Shown here piece after piece: positions 1,080 through 49,249 of a stretch of 58,253 nucleotides of DNA. The notes under the pieces were generated by a model, which was not told the DNA's origin, searched no databases, and saw only the letters and a program-made list of their open reading frames with translations. Position 1 is the stretch's first letter; each line of letters starts with the position of its first letter. This DNA comes from a virus (lineage: Duplodnaviria; Caudoviricetes). The stretch lies in IMG/VR virus record IMGVR_UViG_3300044723_012229, positions 1-58,253 of that record; one strand, 5' to 3'. The position numbers and the translations under genes are program-made.

Positions 1080-4000
1080 TTACCCTCCAGTTTATTCAAT
1101 CTTTTAGACAAGGATTCAATAGTTTTCTGTTGCTCTTGTACGGCCCCTATAAGCAAAGGCACTAGTTTTTCATATCTCAATCCAAAGTACCCATCTTCTC
1201 TGAGTTTTACAACTTCGGGTAAAACTTTTTTGACTTGCTGAGCGATCAAGCCAACCTCTTCACCGCGAAGGTTTGATTTTTTTTCATTCCATGAAAAACG
1301 CACAGCTTCTATTTTCATTATAGAATCTAGGCAGTTATTTAATAATTCAATATTTTCTTTTAGCCTTTTATCGGAAGAATGAAAAGCAACAACATCTCCC
1401 TCAACATTTAAGTCTCCACTGACAGTAGCATTGTAAAGAGTTGCGTTTCTAATGTCTACCGTATCACCATCGGTAGAACCTTCTCCAATAGAAAAATAAT
1501 TTTTACCATCCACTATTCCAGCCTTAAAAAACGTCTCGTTATTGGCGGGTCTAGTCTCAATATATGCATTAGTGTCACCACTCTCCCCCAAGGTAATTGA
1601 ATCTTTAACTATAGACGCATCTGTCAGCAATAAAGACGTGGCCACATTCTCAAAATCGGCGCCAAAAGATTCCCACTTTGTTTCGTCAAAGGTCGCGGCA
1701 TTAGAGGCCTCAGTGGCAAACCAATACTGATTCTCATGTCTTACAATATCAGAAAAGTCGCGCCCCCCGTCCATACTGGCAGCATAGTATTGGGTGCTAG
1801 CCTTCCAGTCTCCTCTGTAAGCTGTGAAAGACCCCTTATCTCCTTTTTCATTAAGGCTTAGTGTTTGCGTAACAGAAACGGAACTTATGGGATCCCCAGC
1901 TATAAAATTATAAGGTTTGTATTCTATATTAAAAGTAATAGAGGCGCCTTTTGCTTCCAACCCGCTATGATTTCCATAGCTATAATGATCAGCGTGCCCA
2001 TTGCCGGGCACGACAGTTATATCACTACCGCATGTAATTTTATTTGGTGTCTTATCGACAACCCTAAACTCTCCTTCCCCCATGGCTACAGAAGTAGCTG
2101 CTTTTGTTCGGTTTAATTTTACATCCCCTTGAAACACAAAAAGATCTGTTCCTGAACTTTCGTAGTTAATCTGAGTCAGATCATCCCTGCCCGGCAATCC
2201 GTGATACTGATTAGATAATATAGCAGTAATTGCATCAGAACCAGCCACAAGAGCAAATATAGCAACTTGGTCGCTTGCTAAAACAGTACCACTGCTACCC
2301 TCTTTTATTTCACATTTTATGGTAGCAAGTATATTGTTATTTCCGTATCTAGGTGGTGGAGAATAAGTTACTGTATTACCAGTCTCCCAAGTATCCTCTT
2401 TATCAATTGACCCTTGTCCATCATGAGAGAATCTATAATAAACAGTTTCATTATTGTTTGTGAAAAAAGGGTTTGCAGCAATCGTCACCGTATCATTTTC
2501 ATTCAGTAAATAATAATCCGAACTATCATACGCAACGCCTAATTTAGAAGCTTCCAACTCAAGAACTCTCTTTGGCGGAGCATCAGATTGCAGAGAAAAA
2601 CTTTGCTTCTTGGAAATGTCAACCACAGACCCGTTCTCTTTTCTAAGTTTTATGGAGAGAGTCCTGTATCCAGATTCAATACTACTCGCGAAAGACTTTA
2701 AGTCTTTTATAACCATTGCCGAGTCAGACCCAGCGGTTACGTTACCAGAATCTTCCTCTACAATATGTGCTGAAGATGTAGATGTTTCTATAAAATAGCT
2801 ACCATTAGCAGAAGGATAGTCTGAATCTGAATCTCCTTTCGTTTCAGGGTTCATTACAGTATTTCCATGGTAAACAAAAACCCTTGTGCTAGATCCTGCA
2901 ACTACAGGAGCGTCTCCATCATAAGAAGTCCAATAAATCCCCTGAAATTCGTTCTCCAATATAACAGTAATAGAATCGGCACCTCCCCTTAAACCAAAAA
3001 ATGAAAGTTGATCAGAAGCCTCCACAAAGCTACCGTCAGAGTCTTCAGATACTTCGATTTTTATTGTGGCTATATTTTTGCTGCTAAATGTCGAAGGGGG
3101 AACATATTTTAGATTTGTTATGTTACTATACCAACTGCTTACTTTTGAAGACGAGTTAGTTATTACCGTATCCCCTATTTTTATCTGACCAAGTCCGGAT
3201 TCGTTAGTAAACCTGTAATACGGAGTTGCCGCATTATGAGAGTTTATATACTCTAAAGATATGGATGCAGAGTCAGTGCTATTTTCCAGGCCTAAAGTTT
3301 GAGGGTCATAATTAAAGGCTAAATAATCCGCAGAAGCAGAAAGTGATCTAATAGGTCTTGAAGCAGCCTGAAGAGAAAAACTTTGCCTACGGGAAGACGT
3401 AGAGGTAGTGTCATCTTTTCTCTTTAAATATATATTTATATCCCTATGCGCACTAACTGAAGATTGCCCGTAAGAAGCAAGATCACTTATTGTGGCAATT
3501 TTATTAGTAGAATTGTAACTTATATTATTAGACGACTGCTCTGTTATACCAGCGCTTGCAGTCGTAGATATAAAATAGTGTCCGCGCTCACTAGGATAAG
3601 TTCCATTACCATAATCTCCCCCCTTGGCAACAGGCGTCATCAATTCACTACCCTGATAAACATACATTTTTGACCCAGATCCAGTAACCTCAGGAGCATC
3701 CTCCGAGTACGAAGACCAATAGACGCCGTGATGTTCATTTTCCAAAACCAAAGTTATTGCATTTGATCCAGCCTTTAATCCAAAAAACGAAACCTGATCG
3801 GACGCCTCAATATTCCTATCATCACCAGAAGCGTCTTCAGTTATTTCACAAACAACATGGCCTATGTTTTGATCAGAGTATTCGACCGGCGGAACAAATC
3901 TAACTTCATCAATCTCACTACTCCATTCAGAGGAGTAGTCTACCCACTCCCCACTGCTATTTTTATATTCTAAAGCGCCAGAGCCGCTTTGGGTAAACCT

Positions 4001-36860: not shown

Positions 36861-39800
36861 CTAGATTCACTAAGTACCCCTCCAGGCCTTTTTTCTTCAA
36901 CAATAACAGATACCACCTGCTGCTTTATTCGTTCACTCATTTCTTTGTACTTTGCAACATCTTCATTACCAGAACTTGCGGATTTAGATTCTTTTTCCGA
37001 AGAAGATTTTCCTGAGGAATCGACGTTTACAGTGATATTTATATTATTTGTATTTGCAGATGACGATTTAGAGTCGGAGAAAGCTCCAGAATCATCAGAG
37101 GATCCTACCGCTCCTCCTTGATAATACTTTCCTGCGTTGACCATGTCTAGATTTGCCTTACCTATTTTTCTTGCAGAGCTAGCTTTAATTACATACTCTC
37201 CATCCGAAAGCATGGCTGGAATCTGGTCAATGCCTTTTTTACCAGAAACATGGCCTCCCTTATTATAATTGTGAATCATTCCTCCGAGAGACTGCGAGTA
37301 AACACTGCCCCAATCCATTGCATATTTGAAATTGGTTTTTGGTTGATTAAGTTGCTGTTGAAAATAGTCGCTCCCAGAATAATTCCACTGACTTTTGTTT
37401 CCGCCGAATACACCCCTAAATGGATTCGCTTGTTGCAAGAAGCTTTTGTTATTTGCTATGGGAGAACTTTGAATAAAACCCTGACTGATTGCATCATCAG
37501 TTATTCCATTCTTAAATATTTTATAAGATCCATCTATGTTTTGTGCGACCACAGCGTCTTTACCTAAGTTTTCTAAACTTTTATTTGTCAAGCCTGCTTC
37601 TTTAGCGGCCCCAGTTAATTTACCTGTTCCAGTATCCGAAATAGAATCGAAAGCATTATTCAATCCCGCCATAACCACGGTGCTCACAAGAGAACCGATT
37701 AAAGCTCTTTTCTTGGCTTTCTTTTCGTATCGTTTTTGCTGATCTTCCCTCCATTTTTGCATGGATTCATTGTATTCATCTTGCGTATCGCGCGCATCAT
37801 CCGCGAGAGCCACATTTCCAGCTGCCCCACTTAAAAAGAAGCCGCTAACATTTCTTTTGCGATACTTCTTTCCTGTATCCTTCATGCCTGCACTTACATG
37901 AGAACCAACGTCCCCGCCTTCTGCAAATTGCTGAATGCCTATTCCAGAATTCAAATTGTGCATAAACGCGGTTCCGTATTTGGACACGGCCCCTCGATTC
38001 ATTACATACTCTCCATCACTAACCATCGCAGGAACCATTCCTCCAGAGCTATATTTTCTGACTCCTCCCCCATCGTTGTAACGAGCAATTGTTTGATCGG
38101 TTTGAAAAGCCTTGCCTCCTCTGGTATACGTACGAATAACGCCTCCGTTATGGCGCTCTTTAACCCTTCCTCCAGTATTGAATCCCATTGAACCAACAAT
38201 TCTATTTGCAAAAGATTGAAGCATGGCTCGCTGAATTGCCATCAAGAAATTCAAACCAATTTGCCGCAGTTGATCATCAAGATCCTCTGCTCCATTGATC
38301 GCAACCTGCATGGCGTCGGCCATACCAGAGGCGAAGTTTTGTGCAATATCTCCACCAAGCTTAAAGTCCATATAATCAGCTTGATCGCGAAGTTCTTTTG
38401 CTGCGTTCCTAAAACCGTCAACCATGTATCCAGCACCAGAACCTCTTTGGAAAGCATCGATTTGTCTAAGAGTTGCAAGTCTTTCTTTGTCGCTTTGTAG
38501 GGTTTCTTTTGTTCTTTCGGATATATTATCAAGATCACTTTTAGCTGCACTCAAAGCTTGCTGCTCTTCGTCCGAAAGATTACCTCCTTTAGATTTTAAC
38601 TCTTTTATCTCTTCCAATTTTTCAATTTGTTCAGCGAGTAATGCGTTTGCTGACTCGAGAGCTTGATTTGACTTTTTGTCATCTTCGCTAAGATCCTGGT
38701 CTGGTTTTGTTAGTTTTATACTTTCAGTATTATCATCCACTATTGTTTTGAGTCTTGATATAGCACCACCCTCGTTGCCATCCTCTATAGTATAGCCTGC
38801 CACACCCAGTCCGGTATTTAATTCATTTAATCTTTTTTGAGTTCTTTCTTCTTTAGCGGTTTTAGCAAGCTCCTCAAAACTTGAAGATGTACCTTCTTTA
38901 CCTAGCTCACTAAAAGAATTCACATCTTCAGTTTGTAAAGACTCTAAGTCCTTCTCATTATAATATCCCGCTAAACCCATATCATTAAGAGCTTTCTGTG
39001 CGGTAGTTGAGGTTGATTGATTGAAGCTTGTTATTCTATCTGCTTGTTGTTTTGGCAAAGTATTTTTTTCATAAAAATCAAGCTCTTCTTGTTTTGTTCG
39101 ATAAAGACCTCTTTTCTTTCCATCAGCAATAGGCCTTTGAAAGTTATCTTGATCTCTCTGATAGCCTATATCCCTAATGGAAGCGGCGTGCTGAAGGTTA
39201 TCCATTGCGGTTTTAAATTTTATCGCAGTAGCCGACGCATCATCAGCAATCTTGCCTAGCTCTACATTTATTTTACTCTGAATAGTCAACCTGTTTTGAT
39301 CTAATTTACTGCCCTCAATTAGCTGTTTATTTCGCAAGGCCGAATTTTTTTCATAATTACTTAAAGCTTTACCTTCGTTTGAGCTTGCATCGGTCAATGT
39401 CCGCAGAAATTTTAAAAATTCATCAGCACCTTTTTCAAACTCTGCATTTAATGCATCATTAACCTCTATATCAGTTACATCCTTTTCGGGCTTTCCCCCA
39501 TCTTGAGCCAAGTTTATTTTGATTGCGCTCTTCAAGTTATTACTTCCTTGCGCAATTTTTAATAATTCATCAACACTGGTTTGCTCGTTTTTCTTGAGTT
39601 GCTCTTCGTATTTTTGTGAAAGTTTTACTTGAGCTTTTGCGGCGGCTATTTTGGCTTTTGTTTCTTTGTTCATCGAACCAGCCATAACCCTTTCGTAGTT
39701 TGAAAGAGAATCGGTAATACTTCCATATACTCGCTTGATTTTCATTTGTTCATCAAACATAAGCTGAGCATTTCGTATCATTGCTTGTTCTAAATTTAGT

Positions 39801-42800
39801 CTAATGATTACAGCATTATTTTGTTTCGTGTAATTTTCTAGCAGTTTTCCAACCTCTATCCCTGCGCTTTTTAATATTGCTATAATTTCTGCCTCATTCC
39901 CTGCTGCATTTAAAGCTTTCAATTCTGTTTTTAGATCCCCTACATTTTTAGTTTCCTTGCTTCCGTCTTGCTTTTTGTATGAGACCTCTTTTGTATCTGG
40001 TAGCAGATCCAAGTAGTCCTCATATAACTCTTGAGCCATACTAACTTTTTTACCATCATCCTGGTTATCAAAAAAACCACTTCCACCAAATTGAGCAATA
40101 ATCTCATTCATTGAATAATTTTTATTGAGATCAGTTAAGCCCATAGTTTTAAGCTGATCATTTCTTTCGGCGGTCATTTCTTGCACCCTAACCATATCTT
40201 CTTTAGCCGCACTTGTTAGTTCCTCATTAAGTATTTTCCCTCCTTTTATCAAACTATCCAAAACATACTGAGCGCCTTTTTCGCTGTGACGAGCTATTCG
40301 ATCGACCAGCTCTTCCAGCTCAGGGTCTTTATGTGGATCTTTTCTAAATTCGTCTATGTTTCCGTAATCTTTCAAGCCTTTTAGTTTATGCGCAAACTCA
40401 ATTGCACCATCAATAGTCTCATCTCCAGCATACTTGTCTAACTGCACAGTGGTTGGGCGTATTGCGCTTCCCATGCCAAGCATACCTCTGTGTGTTTGAA
40501 TATCTAAATCTAGATCCGAAATAATACTCTGCATCTCTTCAGTATTAAAAACAAGTTCTACTTCTTCTTGAGCCTTCATGCCGTTAACTACTCGGGGGCC
40601 AGTTGCTACAAATTTTCCGCTGGCATTTAGTCTAGTTGGAGTATTGACATTAAATGTCTTAGCGGAAGTCATCCGGTAGTCTATATCATTCCCCTCAAAA
40701 TCTTTTTGACCTTTTTTAAAAATATCGTTCTTAACGGCATTGAACCCAGATACAGCGCTTTGAATAGTGGTCTTAGACCTTTGTTTATCAAATTCTAGAG
40801 AGCTTTTTCGCATCGCTTCTGCATTTTCATCGGTTGCGCCGAGAAGTCCAATCAAACCTCCTGTAGCAGCGCCAAGCGCGGTAACCAAAGGAGCAAATGG
40901 TCCAGCTAAAGGCGCAACCATACTCGCCATCATTGCACCACTAGAAGCTCCGGTTAAAGCTCCCCCTGCAGCATAAGCTGCTCCGCCAGCTCCACCACCT
41001 GGACCCCCTTCTTGAAGAAATCCTGCGGCCATCGGCGCGCCCATCATCATCATCATGCCTTTATCACCACTAAACATGCCTCCAAGTTTTTTCGAAAATT
41101 TTCCAGCGGCCGAGTTGCCTGCTCTATTTATCGCTCCCCCAATAGAATTTTCTAGCTTTAGCTGCTGCTCTTTTTTAGCTCTAATTTTTGTTTTTGTATC
41201 AACAATATTTCGCTCTGCATTAGCAGACTGCTTAGTTAAGTCGCTAACTTTTTGACTTTGAGTCGCAAGATCTGCTTCAATCCTTTGAAGTTTTTTTCTG
41301 TTTTTATTTGATGTTTTGAGTTTCTCAACTCTCTCTTTTTCTTCTTTTAACTGCTTCTCTTTAGCTTTAGCTATTTCTAAGGGTTCTTTATTGCTCTTAA
41401 CTATTTTGTAATGTTCTTTTATTGCTGTACCCAGTTGCAACAAAGAATCTTTAACTTCCCCCATTTCAGATGCATAACTACTAGCAGTTAAAGGGCCAAT
41501 CTTATCGCTTATTGCATAATTAGGAACATACGAGTCTGCGCCAAAAACATCTCTTAATCCATTTGGTTCGTCTCGAGTATTCGTAACCCCAAGGCCCAGG
41601 GGATTCTCTTTTTTTACGAGAGCAGAATGAGCGTCAACACGAATTTGATTAACAGGAACCCCCGCAGCCTTTTCGCGATTGATTGCATCGCTCAACGGGT
41701 TCGCAAAATTAGGAACGTGACCTTCAGCAGAAAATCCAACCCTAGAGTCGTTCAAATAATTTTTATCTTTTCGCGTCAACATTGTTGTGCGCAAACCGCC
41801 AATAGAAAATAGTTCACCAGAAGATGTGCCGCTAAGAATACCATTCTTTTCATTGTAACCAAGATTTGCTTGTGAATAATCCAAAAAAGCTTTCAACCCA
41901 TTTCGGTTTACCCATTTACTCACCTGCATTTTTAACGAACGCAAAGAATTAAATGGAAAGCTATTATATCCAATATTCATCTCGCCAGATGTAACCATGC
42001 CAGGCTTGATCCTTTGTTTTAATTGAGGAAATGAACTCAACAACATAGACCACGGAGTTTTTCCAGAAGCTACATTAATTTGATCAAAGTCACTATAAAT
42101 AGAAGGATCTTTTCCTCCCTGTTTTTTTGTAAAATCACCAATAACCCCAAAATTTTTGAACGCTCCTCCCTTTTTGCTTGAGTCTCCTACACTGACACCA
42201 TCTTTTCTTGATGAATAAATGATTGAGGCGCTATTAGTGGTGGACCCAGATTCTTTTCCGTATGTAAAATCAGTATATGTACCAGTTTCTTTGTCGGTTA
42301 TTCTAGCAACAGGCAAATACCCGCTATATTTTCCGGTCGTTTTTATATTTGAATTTCCAAACTTATTTATTCTTTTGTTTAGTTCTTCTAGGTTTTTCTT
42401 CTTTTGAAAATCTATATAGTCTGAATTCATTGACCACTTCCACTTAGGCTCAGACTCCCAAGAATTTGCGGCGAAATTAGGAATGTACCCTCTAGCAGCT
42501 TTTTGAAATGCAGGGCTAATTTCCTTGAGGTCGTCGGAGAGCTTGTACTTTTTTCTAGTATATGGAATTGCCCCTGACCGTGTTACCTTTACTTTTTTTC
42601 CGTCTTTGTTCTTTATAGGATTTCCATCTTCATCAACTGCGTCCTCCTCCCATGTTTCTCTTACCCCAAATTCGTTGATTAGTTTTTTATAGAAAGATTT
42701 TTTATTTGAGTTAGACAATGAATTTTTGTAATCCGCCAAATTTATCTTTGGTAAATCTGTAAAAATTCTCCTTAACTGACCAATAGCTCCACTTCTAACA

Positions 42801-45800
42801 TCAAAATCTCCATAAACATCGGATCGGTCATCTGGTTCAGGCTTATATTGCACAGCGGCGTTAACAGCTGTTTCAAATATTCCTCCGACCGCAGCATTCA
42901 TACCGCCTTTTGCTCCTTTTGCTTGTGTAAATTCGTCCTCAAACACCCCCATTTGCACAGCCTCTTCGCCGATAAGTGCTCGTATTTGATTTGTATAACC
43001 TAGCCCAATGTTCTTCGAAGAGCTTGATATTGCCTCAGAGAGGTTGGTTTTCACCGTCTTGCCGCCTGCAGTCTTCAGAGAGTATACAGGCCAAGAAAGC
43101 CTTTTGTCGCCTGTACCATAACTAGCTATTCCGCTACCAGCTTCAGGAGGAACAAGCATAGCGGCTTTAGCGTTTTCGACAGCTTTATTGGTTGCTTTAA
43201 TATCTACTCGATGCTCTTGCAATTGCTTGAAATTCTTTGCGCCAATATCGTCTGCATAATCTTCAAATAATATTGCCTGAGTTGGTACAGGACTCTTACC
43301 CCAAGCATTACTAAGTATCTCTCGAGCTTCACCGGAGGTCCACCCATATCCTTTGTCGGCAACCTCGATTATAGCATTTCTTTGCTTGTTGGAGAGGCCA
43401 GCTGGAAGCGCAAAGTTGGGTATATATCCATCAGAATTATACGGGTCAAAACCATGAACCTTTCCAAACTCTTTTTGGTAAGCCTGCCCAGCGCGACTCT
43501 TGGCAGGAGGCATGATTGCTGGTTGAGACATGCCAGGAAAAGTTTTCACCTGCTCTGCCGAGTTGTAAACAACCGGACCTTCTCCCGGAATATCCATTGA
43601 TTTTATTGCTCCAGGTGCGTACCCAGATTTGACCGCTTCCTTTCTTTCTATTTTTTCTGGGCTAGGCACAAATCCTTCTGCAAATATATAATCAAAAAGA
43701 TCCGGCTCTTGCCTATCTTTAGGGACAAGCCTTTGATTTCTTGAGTTGGCAAAATTAGGAACATATCCCAATGCATAAGGCTTTGGTTTCTTTTTTAAGC
43801 TGTCGGTTTCCTCTTCGTCTTTTTTTAATCTATTTATCTCAAACCTTTTATTGAATGCGTCAGATCCATTAATTTTTTCGAAACCAGAGCGATAATTTTG
43901 TTGATCTATTTTGGATAGAATCGGAGTTTCTTTTTCGGTTTGATATATTTTAATATCTTTTTGATAGTATGGTTTAAGCCTTTGGTTTTTTGATCCTCGC
44001 TCGACAACCTCAAATTTTCTTTCCTGAGGTTCGGTGATTTGGTTTTTAGAACCCTTTTGATCTTCAGGCTGAATCTGTCTTTCTTGAGGAGGAGAGCTTT
44101 GATTTTTCGAGCCCCCTTTGATATCAGGGAGATCCAATTGATCTACATCTTCTCTGCGATCTGAAGTTTCTGTTGTTTGATTCTTCGATCCAATCTTTTG
44201 CTCTTCGGGTATCTGCCTTTCTTGCGGCGCAGACTTTTGATTTTTAGAACCCACCTGCTGATCGACTTGAGCCTCTCTATCGGTTTGATTCTTAGAACCC
44301 TTTTGCTCTTGAGGTTCTAATTGTCGCTCTTCGGGAGCAGCGGTTTGATTCTTGGAACCCTTTTGCTCATCAGGTTCAGTAAATTCTTTGGGAGTAGTCT
44401 TTTGGTTTTTAGAGCCAACTTGTTGATCGACTTGTACCTCTTTATCAACTTGATTTTTGGAACCCTTCTTCTCGTCGGGCTCAAGTTGCCTTTCCTGAGG
44501 GGCAGCGGTTTGGTTTTTAGAGCCTTTCTGTTCTCCAGGCTCAGTAAACTCCTTGGGAGTAGTCTTTTGGTTTTTGGATCCTTCCTGTTGATCGGTTTGT
44601 GTTTTTCTAACAGTCTGATTCTTGGATCCCTGCTGTTCATCAGGAAAAAGTTGGCGCTCTTGCGGAGGCGAGGTTTGATTTTTAGATGCTTTATTTAAAT
44701 CGACTCCTTGAATTATTTTATTTGGATCAATACCTTTCGTTCTCGTTTTGTTATCAGAGAACATGGTTTTTGATTCGGATGAATCTTTGCCATTTAACTT
44801 TTCAAAACCCTTCTTAAATAGATCTCTGTTTTCTCTGTCGCTCGATTTAGATAGTTCAGAAGCAAGAGATACCTCTGTTTCAGTAATTTTGATTTTACTT
44901 GTTTGATTCTTCGAGCCTTTTTGTTCTTGTTCTTGTTGACGCTCTTGAGGTGGAGCAACTTGATTCTTGGATCCTTTTTGATCTTCTGGTAACGTTTGGC
45001 GTTCTTGAGGAGGGGTTGTTTGATTTTTCGAGCCAGATTCTACTTCTGGCAAATCCAGTTTATCTACATCATCCCTGCGATCAACGGCCACTTGATTTTT
45101 GGAGCCGGGCTGGTCTTCGGGAGTTATTTGTCGATCCTTAGGGGGAGTTTTTTGATTCTTTGAACCTGTTTGTTCTTGAGGCTCTAGTTGTCGCTCTTCA
45201 GGAGTAGCGGTTTGATTTTTGGAACCCTTTTGCTCATCGGGTTCAGCAAATTCTTTGGGAGTAGTCTTTTGGTTTTTGGACCCTTCTTGTTGATCAGATT
45301 GAGTTCGACGCTCTTGAGGTGGAGCAGTTTGATTTTTTGAGCCAGAATCTTCTGCAGAGCCTTGTCTTTCCTTAGGGGGAGTTCTTTGATTCTGAGAGCC
45401 AATAATTGTCTCCGGATCTTGAGATATATCCAAATCCTCCCGAGACCTTAATCTTTGAACTTTTTTAAAATAAGAATTTGGAACATATTTTTGATTGCGA
45501 GATTTATCTGCAGAATCAACACCAGAGGCTTCATATGGATTAAATCCATGAATATCTTGAAAAGCTTGCTTATAGCTTGAGCCTGCTTTCGTCTGAGAAG
45601 GAGGCATGATTGCAGGCTGTTTTATTCCCGGAAAATATTTTATTGTTTCTGCTGTGTTGTATAAAATATCTCCTTCTCCAGGAACCCTCATTGATCTCAC
45701 TTGACCAGGTTTATATCCTGCTTCTTTTGCAGCCTCCTCTTCTTCAAATTTATCTTTCGTTGAAGTTTTAGCAAAATTAGGAACAAAACCCTCTGCAGAT

Positions 45801-47422
45801 CTACCTTTTTTTGTTCTCCTTGTGAGGTTGGGCCCAAATCCCTGTTGGTATAGAGTTGAGGAAGCCTGTTGAGCGACAGCGTTCAATGTTTTAGCTTCTG
45901 CTATTTGAGACTTTATCAAACCAAGAATAATCTTCTCTTTTTCAACCTTGGAAATATCTGTTCTCAACATCTCTTTATTAAGAGCCGCATTTTGAGAAAA
46001 TAAATTTACTAAAGATGTTTGTATTGACTGTTGTTTTTTTGCTTCGCTCGTAATACCAATCAAAGAACCAAGGCTTTCTCTAGTAAATTTAACAGCTTGA
46101 CCAAACAACTTAAAGAATACCGCAGTAAGAACAACCAAGCCTGGGCCAGATAGTATATTCCCAATACCGGCAAGAAAGCCGTTGGCAAATTTACTTCCAG
46201 CACTTTCTCCATCTCCAATCAAATCATTTGCCCCCTCCGCAAAGCTTTTAAAAGTATTTAAAATTTTCTCCATTCCGGGAGCAAGAACAACTTCGCCCAC
46301 TGCGGCGCTCATTTCTTTTAGAGCCAAACCAGTTTCTGTGGCTAGAGCAGAAACAGTATCTCTCAATTGATCATTTTTTTCAATTGCTTCATTGGTGGCA
46401 GAAGAAGAAATTTCAGTGGCTCTCGCAAGTATACCATTTTGCTTTGCAGCGTCACTCAAAACAGCCTTCAAGATATTGATCTGAAAAACGCCACCGACTG
46501 TTTGAGCTATTTGAGCTTTCTGAGATTCAGATAAACTATCGAAAGTGTTTGCGAGATCGGTGAGTATTCTTGTGGCATTGATTGTGTTGCCCTCAATATC
46601 TCTAACAGCAATACCTAGCTCTTCCAACTGATCAAGAGTACCCGTTCTGCCAACTCTTGTAAAAATAGTTTTTAGCGAGTTTCCGATTACCTTTCCGCCT
46701 CGAGCGGTTTGCTGTTGAGCGGCGGTCACCATGCCAACAAGTTCATCAATATCAACTCCAGCACTTTTTGCAGATTGACCCGTTCTAGCGATGGCGTCAG
46801 CAAAGTCTTCAGCGCTAACAGCAAACTGGACGTCAACCGCTGCAAACTTACTCACAAGTTCAGTTGTGTCTTTAATTTCTGAACCATAAGTATTCATTGC
46901 GGCAGTTAAAGCTTTTACCGCATTTGCAGAGTCCATGCCCGTCAGACGAGTAAGAATTAAAGCGTCTCGAGTTCTTTTTAAAGTTTCTTCTACAGATAAA
47001 CCTTGGCGAGCATATTCTACCGCTGCATCAGAAGCAACCTTAAATGCTTGTCCAGTTTCTTTAGCTGCATCAAATAATCCAGAAGAAAAAGCCTGGAGAT
47101 TATCTGTCGACAAACCCATAACTACATTTATATCTGCAAGAGCCTTTTCGACTTCAACTAAGTTAACGACCATAGACTTGAATGCATTAGAAATGCCGTT
47201 TATAATAGCCATACTGGCGCCAAACGCAAGAATACGAGCGTTGGCAGCCTCCATTGACTTGGTAAACTCATCTGCAGACCTGCGCATATTACCCAAAGGC
47301 TGAGTGGCACCTTTGTCATCTACGCTAACCTTTATTGGCTGTCGGCGTATTCTATTTACAGCCGCTTGTACCGCCGCTTCAAGCGGCTTGGTATTACCAT
47401 GTACGTCAAGATCTATACTCAT
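36857..47422 (-). CDS. Tail tape measure protein (TP901-type core) with large internal cassette region
   Basis: 3521 aa. N-terminal TMP core (VEKALADINVV...AAVEYARQG...GNSLKTIFTR), Gly/Ala hydrophobic segments, long coiled coils, C-terminal F/YxxGGxV and PAM(V/L)SDGEYV motifs. Confidence 0.95.
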   Translation of the reverse strand: MSIDLDVHGNTKPLEAAVQAAVNRIRRQPIKVSVDDKGATQPLGNMRRSADEFTKSMEAANARILAFGASMAIINGISNAFKSMVVNLVEVEKALADINVVMGLSTDNLQAFSSGLFDAAKETGQAFKVASDAAVEYARQGLSVEETLKRTRDALILTRLTGMDSANAVKALTAAMNTYGSEIKDTTELVSKFAAVDVQFAVSAEDFADAIARTGQSAKSAGVDIDELVGMVTAAQQQTARGGKVIGNSLKTIFTRVGRTGTLDQLEELGIAVRDIEGNTINATRILTDLANTFDSLSESQKAQIAQTVGGVFQINILKAVLSDAAKQNGILARATEISSSATNEAIEKNDQLRDTVSALATETGLALKEMSAAVGEVVLAPGMEKILNTFKSFAEGANDLIGDGESAGSKFANGFLAGIGNILSGPGLVVLTAVFFKLFGQAVKFTRESLGSLIGITSEAKKQQSIQTSLVNLFSQNAALNKEMLRTDISKVEKEKIILGLIKSQIAEAKTLNAVAQQASSTLYQQGFGPNLTRRTKKGRSAEGFVPNFAKTSTKDKFEEEEAAKEAGYKPGQVRSMRVPGEGDILYNTAETIKYFPGIKQPAIMPPSQTKAGSSYKQAFQDIHGFNPYEASGVDSADKSRNQKYVPNSYFKKVQRLRSREDLDISQDPETIIGSQNQRTPPKERQGSAEDSGSKNQTAPPQERRTQSDQQEGSKNQKTTPKEFAEPDEQKGSKNQTATPEERQLEPQEQTGSKNQKTPPKDRQITPEDQPGSKNQVAVDRRDDVDKLDLPEVESGSKNQTTPPQERQTLPEDQKGSKNQVAPPQERQQEQEQKGSKNQTSKIKITETEVSLASELSKSSDRENRDLFKKGFEKLNGKDSSESKTMFSDNKTRTKGIDPNKIIQGVDLNKASKNQTSPPQERQLFPDEQQGSKNQTVRKTQTDQQEGSKNQKTTPKEFTEPGEQKGSKNQTAAPQERQLEPDEKKGSKNQVDKEVQVDQQVGSKNQKTTPKEFTEPDEQKGSKNQTAAPEERQLEPQEQKGSKNQTDREAQVDQQVGSKNQKSAPQERQIPEEQKIGSKNQTTETSDRREDVDQLDLPDIKGGSKNQSSPPQERQIQPEDQKGSKNQITEPQERKFEVVERGSKNQRLKPYYQKDIKIYQTEKETPILSKIDQQNYRSGFEKINGSDAFNKRFEINRLKKDEEETDSLKKKPKPYALGYVPNFANSRNQRLVPKDRQEPDLFDYIFAEGFVPSPEKIERKEAVKSGYAPGAIKSMDIPGEGPVVYNSAEQVKTFPGMSQPAIMPPAKSRAGQAYQKEFGKVHGFDPYNSDGYIPNFALPAGLSNKQRNAIIEVADKGYGWTSGEAREILSNAWGKSPVPTQAILFEDYADDIGAKNFKQLQEHRVDIKATNKAVENAKAAMLVPPEAGSGIASYGTGDKRLSWPVYSLKTAGGKTVKTNLSEAISSSSKNIGLGYTNQIRALIGEEAVQMGVFEDEFTQAKGAKGGMNAAVGGIFETAVNAAVQYKPEPDDRSDVYGDFDVRSGAIGQLRRIFTDLPKINLADYKNSLSNSNKKSFYKKLINEFGVRETWEEDAVDEDGNPIKNKDGKKVKVTRSGAIPYTRKKYKLSDDLKEISPAFQKAARGYIPNFAANSWESEPKWKWSMNSDYIDFQKKKNLEELNKRINKFGNSNIKTTGKYSGYLPVARITDKETGTYTDFTYGKESGSTTNSASIIYSSRKDGVSVGDSSKKGGAFKNFGVIGDFTKKQGGKDPSIYSDFDQINVASGKTPWSMLLSSFPQLKQRIKPGMVTSGEMNIGYNSFPFNSLRSLKMQVSKWVNRNGLKAFLDYSQANLGYNEKNGILSGTSSGELFSIGGLRTTMLTRKDKNYLNDSRVGFSAEGHVPNFANPLSDAINREKAAGVPVNQIRVDAHSALVKKENPLGLGVTNTRDEPNGLRDVFGADSYVPNYAISDKIGPLTASSYASEMGEVKDSLLQLGTAIKEHYKIVKSNKEPLEIAKAKEKQLKEEKERVEKLKTSNKNRKKLQRIEADLATQSQKVSDLTKQSANAERNIVDTKTKIRAKKEQQLKLENSIGGAINRAGNSAAGKFSKKLGGMFSGDKGMMMMMGAPMAAGFLQEGGPGGGAGGAAYAAGGALTGASSGAMMASMVAPLAGPFAPLVTALGAATGGLIGLLGATDENAEAMRKSSLEFDKQRSKTTIQSAVSGFNAVKNDIFKKGQKDFEGNDIDYRMTSAKTFNVNTPTRLNASGKFVATGPRVVNGMKAQEEVELVFNTEEMQSIISDLDLDIQTHRGMLGMGSAIRPTTVQLDKYAGDETIDGAIEFAHKLKGLKDYGNIDEFRKDPHKDPELEELVDRIARHSEKGAQYVLDSLIKGGKILNEELTSAAKEDMVRVQEMTAERNDQLKTMGLTDLNKNYSMNEIIAQFGGSGFFDNQDDGKKVSMAQELYEDYLDLLPDTKEVSYKKQDGSKETKNVGDLKTELKALNAAGNEAEIIAILKSAGIEVGKLLENYTKQNNAVIIRLNLEQAMIRNAQLMFDEQMKIKRVYGSITDSLSNYERVMAGSMNKETKAKIAAAKAQVKLSQKYEEQLKKNEQTSVDELLKIAQGSNNLKSAIKINLAQDGGKPEKDVTDIEVNDALNAEFEKGADEFLKFLRTLTDASSNEGKALSNYEKNSALRNKQLIEGSKLDQNRLTIQSKINVELGKIADDASATAIKFKTAMDNLQHAASIRDIGYQRDQDNFQRPIADGKKRGLYRTKQEELDFYEKNTLPKQQADRITSFNQSTSTTAQKALNDMGLAGYYNEKDLESLQTEDVNSFSELGKEGTSSSFEELAKTAKEERTQKRLNELNTGLGVAGYTIEDGNEGGAISRLKTIVDDNTESIKLTKPDQDLSEDDKKSNQALESANALLAEQIEKLEEIKELKSKGGNLSDEEQQALSAAKSDLDNISERTKETLQSDKERLATLRQIDAFQRGSGAGYMVDGFRNAAKELRDQADYMDFKLGGDIAQNFASGMADAMQVAINGAEDLDDQLRQIGLNFLMAIQRAMLQSFANRIVGSMGFNTGGRVKERHNGGVIRTYTRGGKAFQTDQTIARYNDGGGVRKYSSGGMVPAMVSDGEYVMNRGAVSKYGTAFMHNLNSGIGIQQFAEGGDVGSHVSAGMKDTGKKYRKRNVSGFFLSGAAGNVALADDARDTQDEYNESMQKWREDQQKRYEKKAKKRALIGSLVSTVVMAGLNNAFDSISDTGTGKLTGAAKEAGLTNKSLENLGKDAVVAQNIDGSYKIFKNGITDDAISQGFIQSSPIANNKSFLQQANPFRGVFGGNKSQWNYSGSDYFQQQLNQPKTNFKYAMDWGSVYSQSLGGMIHNYNKGGHVSGKKGIDQIPAMLSDGEYVIKASSARKIGKANLDMVNAGKYYQGGAVGSSDDSGAFSDSKSSSANTNNINITVNVDSSGKSSSEKESKSASSGNEDVAKYKEMSERIKQQVVSVIVEEKRPGGVLSESR
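43980..45400 (-). repeat. Coding tandem repeat array (GSKNQ-anchored, mostly 15-25 aa units) in the TMP
   Basis: I count 20 exact GSKNQ plus GSQNQ and ASKNQ, with flanking KSRNQ/NSRNQ variants. They form two blocks, each ending in GFEK(L/I)NG. Codons vary synonymously. Confidence 0.95.
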
Positions 47423-47460: not shown

Positions 47461-48447
47461 TTATCCTACGCCATGTAATTTCATTAAATCTTCCATATTT
47501 AAACTTCCACCCTTCTTCTTTACTTCCTCATGCAAATCAACACCTTTAGTTTTTTCTTTCACCCCAAGATACTCATAATCTTCCTTTTTGGCACCCACAA
47601 GGGTGGCTGCATCACCAGTTTGTAACTTCTGAAAAGCTTTATCTTTTTCTTCTTTTGATGAACCCCCGAATTCTAATAATTTTTTTGGATCAGATTTAAT
47701 ATGATCTGGTATATTATCATTAAAATCGAATATATTTTTAAACACCCTGGTGTATACTATCAATCTTATTTGATTGTATGTCAATTCACAAAATGGCTTT
47801 CCATAAAACTGCATACTATCTTCAGCAAAACTCAAATAAGGACTATAAAAATCCTCTAATACTGTATACTGTATACTTTCTTCGCTAAAATTTTCAAATA
47901 TAGAATTATACAACAACACAACATCTGAAATCTCATAGTCTTGCATATCATCAAATTTGTCTCCATCAAAATAAGGCTTATTCAATTCACGATCATAAAA
48001 AAAACTTTTAATCATATAAAAATCATTCATTCTATCTTTTGCATATTTTTCGCAAGTATTACCAATGAGGCTTTTCTTTTGTAATTCTTTATCGCGCAAT
48101 AATTTCTTTTCTTTATCTATTAAATCTTGCTGTTGATCTATTTCGCTCTTGAGTACCAGTTTGTTTTTGGCAGTATTTAAGCTTTTTATAAATTCTTTTT
48201 TATCTTCAATAAATTTTTCATCTTTTTCTGTCCATTGACTTTCTTCTGCAAGCATAGCAAGCATATCTTCTTCAGTAGGAACGCCTTTATTTTTAGCAAT
48301 ATTAAAATACTTCTCCTCTATCTCTTCAAGCTCTACTTGGTCGTGAGGAGTTAAATGTTTTACAAAAACTTTCTCAGAGTTCAGGGTTGACTCAGAGAAA
48401 CCTCGAACAACATCTCTAAATATTCTTCGACGCTTGGTCGTTTCCAC
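47461..48447 (-). CDS. Putative tail assembly chaperone (pre-TMP)
   Basis: 328 aa, charged and helical, GTG start, immediately upstream of TMP. Assignment is positional. Confidence 0.55.
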   Translation of the reverse strand: METTKRRRIFRDVVRGFSESTLNSEKVFVKHLTPHDQVELEEIEEKYFNIAKNKGVPTEEDMLAMLAEESQWTEKDEKFIEDKKEFIKSLNTAKNKLVLKSEIDQQQDLIDKEKKLLRDKELQKKSLIGNTCEKYAKDRMNDFYMIKSFFYDRELNKPYFDGDKFDDMQDYEISDVVLLYNSIFENFSEESIQYTVLEDFYSPYLSFAEDSMQFYGKPFCELTYNQIRLIVYTRVFKNIFDFNDNIPDHIKSDPKKLLEFGGSSKEEKDKAFQKLQTGDAATLVGAKKEDYEYLGVKEKTKGVDLHEEVKKKGGSLNMEDLMKLHGVG

Positions 48448-48451
48448 GACA

Positions 48452-49249
48452 CTAGATGTTACCTTGATCTATATCTTCGCTCAAGCTTTCTAGCTCATCT
48501 GAAGATGCAGAGCCAGAACTATAATACCAAAAACTAAATAAAGCAGCGACCTTGCCACCGATTATATCATAAATCTCATCGCCCTCTTCCTCCATGTCAT
48601 AAAAAACTTGAAGCTTGTGATCAAAAGTTTTGCCAGGAAATAAAGGCTCAATTGCATCCTCGTCACCCCTTTGGATATATGTTAAGTTTAATATATACCA
48701 CTGTATAACCTTATTTTCGGCACGCATATCAGCGGTATGATTGAAAAGATTTGCGTATGATGTTTCAATGTTGATTATATCCTTTCGCGTAAGAGCTATA
48801 TCTCCAGCGAGCGCGCCAATTTTATTTTTAAATTTTTCTGACTCAGGGCTAATTTGAAGCTTCTCTATTTCGTTCGACATTTCGCCGTACTTAATATACA
48901 TATTAGTTAACGACTTAGCGTCTTCCTCTGCAAGAAGCCCCCCCGTGTCGCTATACTTTTTTGCTAACATGGCTTTTGTGAGTATACCGTTTTTGATACA
49001 TTTACTCATCTCGACGCTAAATTCGAGCTCGGCTTCTTCTATTTGCCTTCGGCTAGGTTTTTTCATGATAACCCTGTAAGGCGTTAAGACTTCGCTTTCT
49101 TTCGTGACAGAAATCTCTTCTTGCTCTCCAGTTTCTGGATTGGTGACATTTTTAGTTTCTGTGTTTTTTACTTTTTCAGTCTTGTCAAAAGTGAAGCTGT
49201 AAATTTCTTTGAGTTTTTTTCTTGTTTGTTCTATAGTTTCCTGTGTCAT
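48452..49249 (-). CDS. Putative tail assembly chaperone
   Basis: 265 aa, acidic with a coiled coil; second gene upstream of TMP. Assignment is positional. Confidence 0.5.
   Translation of the reverse strand: MTQETIEQTRKKLKEIYSFTFDKTEKVKNTETKNVTNPETGEQEEISVTKESEVLTPYRVIMKKPSRRQIEEAELEFSVEMSKCIKNGILTKAMLAKKYSDTGGLLAEEDAKSLTNMYIKYGEMSNEIEKLQISPESEKFKNKIGALAGDIALTRKDIINIETSYANLFNHTADMRAENKVIQWYILNLTYIQRGDEDAIEPLFPGKTFDHKLQVFYDMEEEGDEIYDIIGGKVAALFSFWYYSSGSASSDELESLSEDIDQGNI

Follow-up and report, generated by a model that had tools for sequence, protein, structure and literature searches.

We analyzed a 58,253-nucleotide stretch of viral DNA (Duplodnaviria; Caudoviricetes), the IMG/VR virus record IMGVR_UViG_3300044723_012229 from its first to its last position. 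We refer to this whole stretch as the window; its completeness is estimated in IMG/VR at 51%. Its minus strand carries a 3521-aa open reading frame (ORF) that, judged from its family matches, is the tape measure protein of a lambda-like siphovirus tail. Between the N-terminal tape-measure core of this protein and its hydrophobic/coiled-coil half lies a long region punctuated by copies of a short peptide motif. Comparison with relatives showed this part of the protein to be built from globular domains in a modular array, within the tape measure of an uncultured family of marine lambda-like siphoviruses.

The tape measure assignment draws on a match to PF10145 (E 3.7e-27; 95.9 bits against a cut-off of 33.2), on PHROG tape-measure families that cover aa 30–470 (best E 1.3e-52) and on the NCBIfam family TIGR01760, which was matched by a relative of the protein (P0124; E 7.5e-32). 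Genes downstream of the tape measure encode tail-tip domains of the lambda gpM type (PF05939; 2.2e-22), the gpL type (minor tail protein phrog_18; 1e-57) and the gpJ type (PF13550; 1.3e-14). A Pfam scan of the whole 3521-aa protein (E up to 0.1) found no family besides PF10145, and scans of its separate segments (E up to 1) found none. The N-terminal core is 97% identical to that of a relative, L004, which we used for several comparisons below.

Table 1. Features of the tape measure gene, listed from the N-terminus of its product, and of the tail-tip genes of the window
Feature	Residues (aa)	Coordinates	Strand	Basis or remark
Tape measure protein ORF (P0001)	3521 aa	36857..47422	-	Stop-free translation
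PhageMin_Tail (PF10145) core, within conserved N-terminal part (aa 1-541)	118-311	46490..47071	-	Pfam
Motif copy 1, GFVPNFA	545-551	45770..45790	-	Regular-expression scan
Module A, copy 1 (A1)	552-645	45488..45769	-	Internal repeat with aa 1248-1336
Degenerate motif, KYVPNSY	645-651	45470..45490 (YVPN 45476-45487)	-	Regular-expression scan
Low-complexity GSKNQ/PPQERQ repeat region	652-1218	43769..45469	-	165-nt tandem period, 2.2-2.7 copies; 102 internal matches
Motif copy 2, GYVPNFA	1219-1225	43748..43768	-	Regular-expression scan
Degenerate motif, GFVPSP, before A2	1250-1255	43658..43675 (FVPS 43661-43672)	-	Regular-expression scan
Module A, copy 2 (A2)	1255-1331	43430..43660	-	Helix + four strands + helix; pLDDT 72-86; 28 residues invariant in relatives
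Motif copy 3, GYIPNFA	1332-1338	43409..43429	-	Regular-expression scan; pLDDT <50
Module B	1339-1644	42491..43408	-	Alpha/beta domain; invariant G1513, E1517, D1541, [DE]1564, K1566, K1580
Motif copy 4, GYIPNFA	1645-1651	42470..42490	-	Regular-expression scan; pLDDT <50 in both models
Module C, optional cassette	1652-1900	41723..42469	-	Model weakly resembles GNAT acetyltransferase fold
Motif copy 5, GHVPNFA	1901-1907	41702..41722	-	Regular-expression scan; pLDDT <50
Module D	1908-1963	41534..41701	-	Most conserved small module; N-terminal sub-motif shared with A
Motif copy 6, SYVPNYA	1964-1970	41513..41533	-	Regular-expression scan
Gly/Ala/Met-rich hydrophobic stretch, after the array	~2121-2210	40793..41062	-	Read from translation; kept in relatives' consensus
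C-terminal repeat copy 1, GG..VPAMVSDGEYV type	3112-3179	37886..38089	-	38% identity, E 9e-11 with aa 3383-3446; phrog_3547 and phrog_13338 matches
C-terminal repeat copy 2	3383-3446	37085..37276	-	Internal repeat; near-invariant columns
Giant tail-tip gene	4755 aa	20498..34765	-	Lambda gpM domain PF05939 at aa 926-1032
Giant tail-tip gene	2117 aa	12652..19005	-	gpJ-type domain PF13550 at aa 1012-1168
Giant tail-tip gene	3858 aa	1076..12652	-	Unannotated

Copies and conservation of the boundary motif

A first-pass annotation of the window had noticed six copies of the motif, and the degenerate forms KYVPNSY and GFVPSP, in the tape measure protein. A regular-expression scan found every one of these where it had been reported, all in the single 3521-aa ORF, and a six-frame scan of the 58-kb window detected the seven-residue pattern at the six canonical sites only. 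Given its own composition, the protein would be expected to contain ~1e-5 to 4e-5 copies. This expectation, of the order of 1e-5, and the exclusive occurrence of the motif in the tape measure ORF exclude that it arose by chance or from low complexity.

Pooling 436 instances from 121 proteins gave the extended consensus A-x-G-[YHF]-[IV]-P-N-[FY]-A, which we call M. Its G, P and N are conserved in 99–100% of the instances, and the Ala at position -2 in 93%. The six-residue core of the motif is present four times in 120 of the 163 unique tape measures, five times in 28, six times in 6, three times in 7 and once in 2; that is, 154 of the 163 unique metagenomic relatives have 4–6 copies. The copies stand at module edges. 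Among the 158 relatives with recognizable cores of the flanking modules A and D, M precedes A in 154 and follows it in 157, and it precedes D in 158 and follows it in 152 (this count leaves out P0015, L026, L045, L062 and L065, whose A or D core was not recognizable by regular expression). A full-text literature search for four motif strings returned no relevant paper.

AlphaFold models were built from alignments for aa 1246–1655 (54 rows; mean predicted local distance difference test score, pLDDT, 77.1) and aa 1640–1980 (33 rows; mean pLDDT 71.7). Both models have low confidence in the motif stretches (pLDDT <50), whereas the modules between them reach 80–96. Because the motif is modeled so poorly next to well-modeled modules, it is a linker element and not part of a domain core, at least in the monomer. 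A motif that forms part of the folded domains was ruled out for the monomer models on the same scores. That the motif is real, conserved at the protein level and, as the first-pass annotation had proposed, a marker of segment boundaries is thus borne out by the occupancy of 152–158 of 158 edges and by the low-confidence linkers. We regard it as close to certain that the array is modular and that M is the conserved linker motif between its modules.

Modules, relatives and optional cassettes

The region aa 1219–1970 matches at least 872 metagenomic proteins of 1936–6162 aa (2510 candidates scored). Scanning of viral contigs revealed 69 loci with relatives, on contigs of up to 211 kb, and a collection of 185,579 species genomes contained relatives in two fragments of metagenome-assembled genomes only. 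Isolated phages gave no nucleotide match to the tape measure gene and no protein match to the array (aa 475–2141); they match the N-terminal core at 27% identity or less. Our locus tables omit L003, which is on the same contig as L004, as well as L013 and L046, in which the longest ORF is not the tape measure, and they include L065 partly, lacking D there.

Alignment of the relatives showed a common plan: core - M - A - M - B - M - (optional cassettes, each followed by M) - D - M - rest. The core modules A (~75 aa), B (~250–300 aa) and D (56 aa) were present and collinear in 120 of 120 relatives by BLAST annotation, and canonical motif positions fall at ~542, ~624, 880–910 and 945–975 in nearly all of the 120 relatives listed. 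The window has an enlarged version of this plan, with A1, a repeat-rich insert, A2, B, C and D. Written in full, with m* for a degenerate copy, its order is M - A1 - m* - repeats - M - linker - m* - A2 - M - B - M - C - M - D - M.

Modules A and D are both small and very conserved, and they share an N-terminal sub-motif with a helix and hairpin start. Outside the closest lineage, A of the relatives is 54–71% identical to A2 of the window and D is 61–83% identical to its counterpart; for the window's D, identities of 69–96% to relatives were also recorded. Internal comparison of the window's protein showed that aa 543–649 and aa 1248–1336 are two copies of A (46% identity; E 9e-29); by BLAST annotation A1 is 54% identical to A2. 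The 567-aa GSKNQ/PPQERQ insert is confined to the window's own lineage (P0001–P0003 and L004); it is placed between the two decayed motif copies, KYVPNSY and GFVPSP.

The optional cassettes C, E, F and G sit between B and D, each with an additional copy of the motif. Cassette E (85–93 aa) occurs in 23 of the 163 unique proteins, C in 9 and F (120 aa) in 5; L057 has an extra module of 246 aa and L062 has two tandem divergent C-like modules. The distribution of these cassettes was mapped on a FastTree phylogeny of the N-terminal core (151 rows with a complete N-terminus), on which E required 12 changes against a shuffled mean of 20.6 (minimum 18), C 3 against 5.9 and F 2 against 4.9. The cassettes are inherited, yet they have been gained or lost repeatedly.

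A more extreme array was found in the distant relative L065 (core 45% identical; L065:11609-17230). It has at least seven modules of ~300–370 aa before the contig ends, separated by a variant motif, G-L-[VI]-P-N-F, and including a B-like module and a module with a Walker-A sequence (GPSGAGKT). Two of the L065 modules share a unit that is also found as the extra cassette of L057. No family in Pfam, PHROGs or NCBIfam was matched by modules A to G or by the L065 array; comparison of the module sequences with PDB sequences gave no match, and ESM Atlas scores of 0.76–0.77 were below the useful range.

The segments between the motifs had been described in the first-pass annotation as unrelated to each other and as exchangeable cargo, and related phages were expected to combine a conserved motif with variable cargo. 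This description can be kept in part. The motif is indeed retained among relatives and cassettes C, E, F and G come and go. The A-B-D core, which makes up most of the cargo, is fixed and collinear in the 120 relatives, however, and B varies by substitution. Nor are the segments unrelated: A occurs twice, a sub-motif is common to A and D, B is one family in 120 relatives, and aa 650–1218 are a low-complexity repeat.

The same annotation had offered a recombination joint as one role of the motif. M would then act mainly at the DNA level, its shared nucleotides allowing cassettes to be shuffled in frame and its peptide having no function. Every cassette gain or loss that we saw does have motif copies at both ends, and a 14-nt run, GTTCCTAATTTTGC, is common to three of the window's copies. 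The six copies in the window are, however, identical at 12–18 of 21 nt, and their differences are mostly at synonymous sites; because the copies vary at such sites, selection acts on the peptide and not on a DNA joint. The peptide is moreover kept among relatives with cores 45–57% identical, which requires protein-level selection. As a sole explanation a DNA joint is largely refuted, and we consider it very improbable.

The window's own B reaches 56 of 121 proteins by BLAST or iterated hidden Markov model searches. All of the segments between A and D (120/120) form a single linked family (at least 30% identity over at least 100 aa), and B is therefore a universal, fast-diverging module and not a set of unrelated cassettes. 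Stand-alone relatives of B of 168–536 aa were limited to one fragment. We compared nonsynonymous (dN) and synonymous (dS) divergence from L004. The values were dN 0.015 and dS 0.58 for the core, 0.008 and 0.37 for A2, 0.171 and 0.37 for B, 0.126 and 0.91 for C, and 0.016 and 0.08 for D. The corresponding dN/dS is ~0.46 for B and ~0.02 for the core and A2. B has the same dS as A2 with a 20-fold higher dN, which rules out that its low identity to L004 arose by swapping of a cassette. Because its dS is ordinary while its dN is high, B differs by rapid amino-acid substitution and not by replacement. Along the tape measure gene, dS relative to L004 is very uneven, with 0.23 in the hydrophobic stretch and 1.7 just after the array beside the 0.08 of D; this suggests recombination or some mosaicism within the gene.

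The conserved residues of B are suggestive of an enzyme. The positions listed for B in Table 1 are invariant in 54 of 54 sequences, and they comprise a glutamate on a helix (E1517), an aspartate between hydrophobic residues (D1541), a [DE]-x-K element and a lysine on the next helix (K1580). PD-(D/E)xK nucleases have a signature in which an acidic residue on a helix is followed by an aspartate flanked by hydrophobic residues and then by (D/E)-x-K, and we take the order of invariant residues in B to be the order of that signature. The B-like module of L065 has the same E...D...(D/E)xK...K order with compact spacing. The blocks of B in the model are mostly of pLDDT 80–96. The A2-B model (410 residues, two domains) had no Foldseek match in the PDB at E 0.001 or better (best E 0.39), its best VIA match had a Z of 4.9 and involved helices only, and it had no match in BFVD; the sequence of B likewise had no match in Pfam, PHROGs, NCBIfam or PDB sequences. 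We rate a nuclease-like enzyme as about an even call for B.

Module C is rare: among 1.84 billion proteins it matched 10 representative clusters, for the most part of large proteins that carry the motif. Its model (residues 51–245) weakly resembles the fold of GNAT (Gcn5-related N-acetyltransferase) enzymes. Of the top 50 rows in VIA, 39 were acetyl- or acyltransferases by title, with 105–138 residues aligned at Z 4.9–5.9, scores below the level advised for trust; a Z below 8 may reflect a common arrangement only. The VIA neighbors include an anti-CRISPR acetyltransferase and a TacT toxin. The Foldseek list was also led by acetyltransferases, at weak E values of 0.1–0.9. GNAT enzymes have a pyrophosphate-binding loop, Q/R-x-x-G-x-G/A, between strand 4 and helix 3. 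The loop between strand 92–100 and helix 114–128 of the C model reads KKGGAF, an inexact match to this motif, and KGGA(F/N)RNF is kept in the relatives of C, presumably located in the loop where GNAT enzymes bind their cofactor. A GNAT acyltransferase-like fold for C is a lead provided by the model.

A possible processing site or docking peptide

We hypothesize, by analogy, that M is a processing site and that the modules are cargo released in the tail lumen, a possibility that we rate somewhat below even. A protease would recognize M in the assembled tape measure and cut the chain there, in a manner resembling the single maturation cleavage by which T5 pb2 releases its enzymatic domain. Once cut free, the modules would be loose within the lumen of the tail and would exit with the tape measure, before the DNA. 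In such a scheme B would be a nuclease-like enzyme under fast protein evolution, C would be an optional acyltransferase-like effector, and A and D would be small, conserved adaptor modules. A fuller version, in which the tape measure would be a tail-lumen polyprotein cut at every M to free nuclease-like, acyltransferase-like and other enzymes and the two adaptor modules for injection ahead of the genome, with M making the array a plug-and-play effector slot, is more tentative, and as a whole we think it rather unlikely.

Several observations weigh against processing and release. The neighboring ORFs have no Pfam or PHROG protease match, and no module matches a peptidase family. The enzyme-like character of the cargo is also affected, as the nuclease assignment of B is that of a sequence signature for which the Foldseek, VIA and BFVD fold searches gave nothing usable, and the GNAT match of C is weak (Z <6; Foldseek E of at least 0.1). 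The strict invariance of G, P and N within a motif of nine positions would be equally typical of a binding motif. Finally, the A-B-...-D order is fixed in 120 of 120 relatives, and freely released cargo would not obviously need this.

A protease would be unnecessary if M cleaved itself. In the maturation of some virus capsids, asparagine cyclizes and the chain breaks at that residue; in the tape measure, cyclization of the invariant Asn of M would break the Asn-Phe/Tyr bond. The Asn is invariant and always followed by Phe or Tyr, and this route would also fit the finding of no protease gene among the neighboring ORFs. On the other hand, the motif is modeled as disordered, with no fixed structural surroundings, and the residues that precede the four canonical copies differ, so that no common catalytic environment is evident; the idea itself comes from general background. 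We judge self-cleavage improbable.

The fixed order and the binding-motif-like conservation favor a different role, in which M remains uncut and is a docking or organizing peptide. Its partner could be the lumen of the tail tube, the product of the upstream 328-aa gene (a candidate assembly chaperone), or modules A and D. Docking would keep three sets of bulky modules in register in a narrow tube, and the intact chain would act as the length ruler. In addition to the order of modules and to how very strictly G, P, N and the aromatic residues are conserved, this would account for a number of motifs that tracks the number of modules exactly, for an array that begins with A and ends with D, both small and highly conserved, and for the conservation of the upstream pair of ~270-aa and 328-aa genes. 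Flexible linkers would also let the three chains of a trimeric tape measure stagger their domains, a trimer being stated for T5 in the relevant passage of PMC10038345. Against docking, no partner was found, and ordinary spacers need no conserved sequence. KYVPNSY and GFVPSP have, furthermore, decayed in the window's lineage while the flanking A modules were retained, so the motif is not required at every boundary. Overall, docking is a possibility nearly as likely as cleavage at M, and what probability remains we leave to explanations that we have not thought of.

Tape measures are usually seen as rulers and channel formers that carry no more than a single small enzymatic motif, whereas here a conserved multi-module array is present. 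Mycobacteriophage tape measures have reportedly been described, by Piuri and Hatfull in 2006, with embedded peptidoglycan-hydrolase motifs; these are likewise small functional domains within the ruler, but they are single small motifs and are not known to have repeated boundary peptides. We are comparing here a very large uncultured family that combines a strict boundary peptide and enzyme-like modules in its tape measure.

The closest parallel to processing at M is T5 pb2, which, in the passages of PMC10038345 that concern its maturation, undergoes a cleavage after R1127 while the tail is being formed, at a position that separates the hydrophobic stretch from the peptidase domain. The enzymatic piece released in this way is retained in the tail until infection, when it is expelled into the periplasm, and the lambda tape measure protein is also cut, according to the same passages. 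As there described, pb2 resembles the present protein in combining a hydrophobic stretch with an enzymatic domain, here enzyme-like modules. It differs in having one cut and one C-terminal peptidase domain, whereas the window's family has 4–6 motif copies around several modules that are N-terminal to the hydrophobic stretch, with cleavage proposed by analogy. Beyond the general tape-measure core, there is no sequence relation to T5 pb2 or lambda gpH.

Two other systems also string or carry domains. Polyvalent proteins are described, in the portion of Iyer et al. (2017; PMC5512222) drawn on here, as large polypeptides that string together enzymatic domains, are thought to be delivered with DNA and are in some cases proteolytically processed. 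The text of PMC5512222 never mentions tape measure proteins (0 occurrences). The tape measure of the window has several folded modules, as seen in the models, and would resemble them in this respect if the modules have the activities proposed here. Polyvalent proteins as characterized in that portion carry known domains and embedded peptidases; the tape measure has no matches to such families and has a shared boundary motif instead, and the Pfam scan of the tape measure showed none of the polyvalent-defining domain families (e.g., the embedded peptidase). Sle1-type effectors of contractile injection systems (CIS) have, according to the abstract of PMC13277306, a tape-measure-like carrier with an exchangeable functional domain that is packaged inside a tail-like particle. 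They belong to actinobacterial intracellular CIS particles and have one variable functional domain, and a boundary motif is not described in that abstract. The repeated boundary peptide sets the array apart from the T5 pb2 type, polyvalent proteins and CIS effectors, none of which has one in the source passages cited.

Release and injection of the modules, if they occur, would make the tail lumen a second compartment, besides the capsid, for anti-host or anti-defense effectors. Marine siphoviruses would then have a widespread route of effector delivery that differs from the use of internal proteins of the capsid. Searches of metagenomes for such cargo could start from the motif, which could also serve to load foreign proteins into the tails of phages. 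If M is a docking peptide instead, it would bear on how bulky globular domains are fitted into a narrow tail tube and on how they affect length measurement.

Neighboring genes and further features of the family

The tape measure ORF belongs to the largest minus-strand operon of the window, in which it is preceded by unannotated genes for 265-aa and 328-aa proteins. On its 3' side are unannotated 389-aa and 306-aa genes and then the giant tail-tip genes (Table 1), whose 4755-, 3858- and 2117-aa products are unannotated outside their gpM- and gpJ-type domains. The upstream gene pair (~265–272 aa and 328 aa; 47461–49249, minus strand) keeps its position and sizes in relatives (e.g., L010 8153–9961) and occupies the slots expected for tube and chaperone genes. 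Neither the ~265–272-aa gene nor the 328-aa gene had a Pfam or PHROG match.

Toward the C-terminus of the tape measure, the duplicated unit GG.V..Y..GG.VPAM(V/L)S(D/N)GEYV....A....G is near-invariant family-wide.

Relatives with shorter tape measures mostly start or end inside modules with frameshift-like tails, or are on short contigs. On ENA contigs of 30–200 kb, the tape measure was observed to be broken inside module B or A in several cases (P0132 with P0150; P0208, P0218 and P0144), and these may be assembly indels or real pseudogenes. One further relative, P0142, begins 6 aa ahead of its first motif, on a contig of 152 kb.

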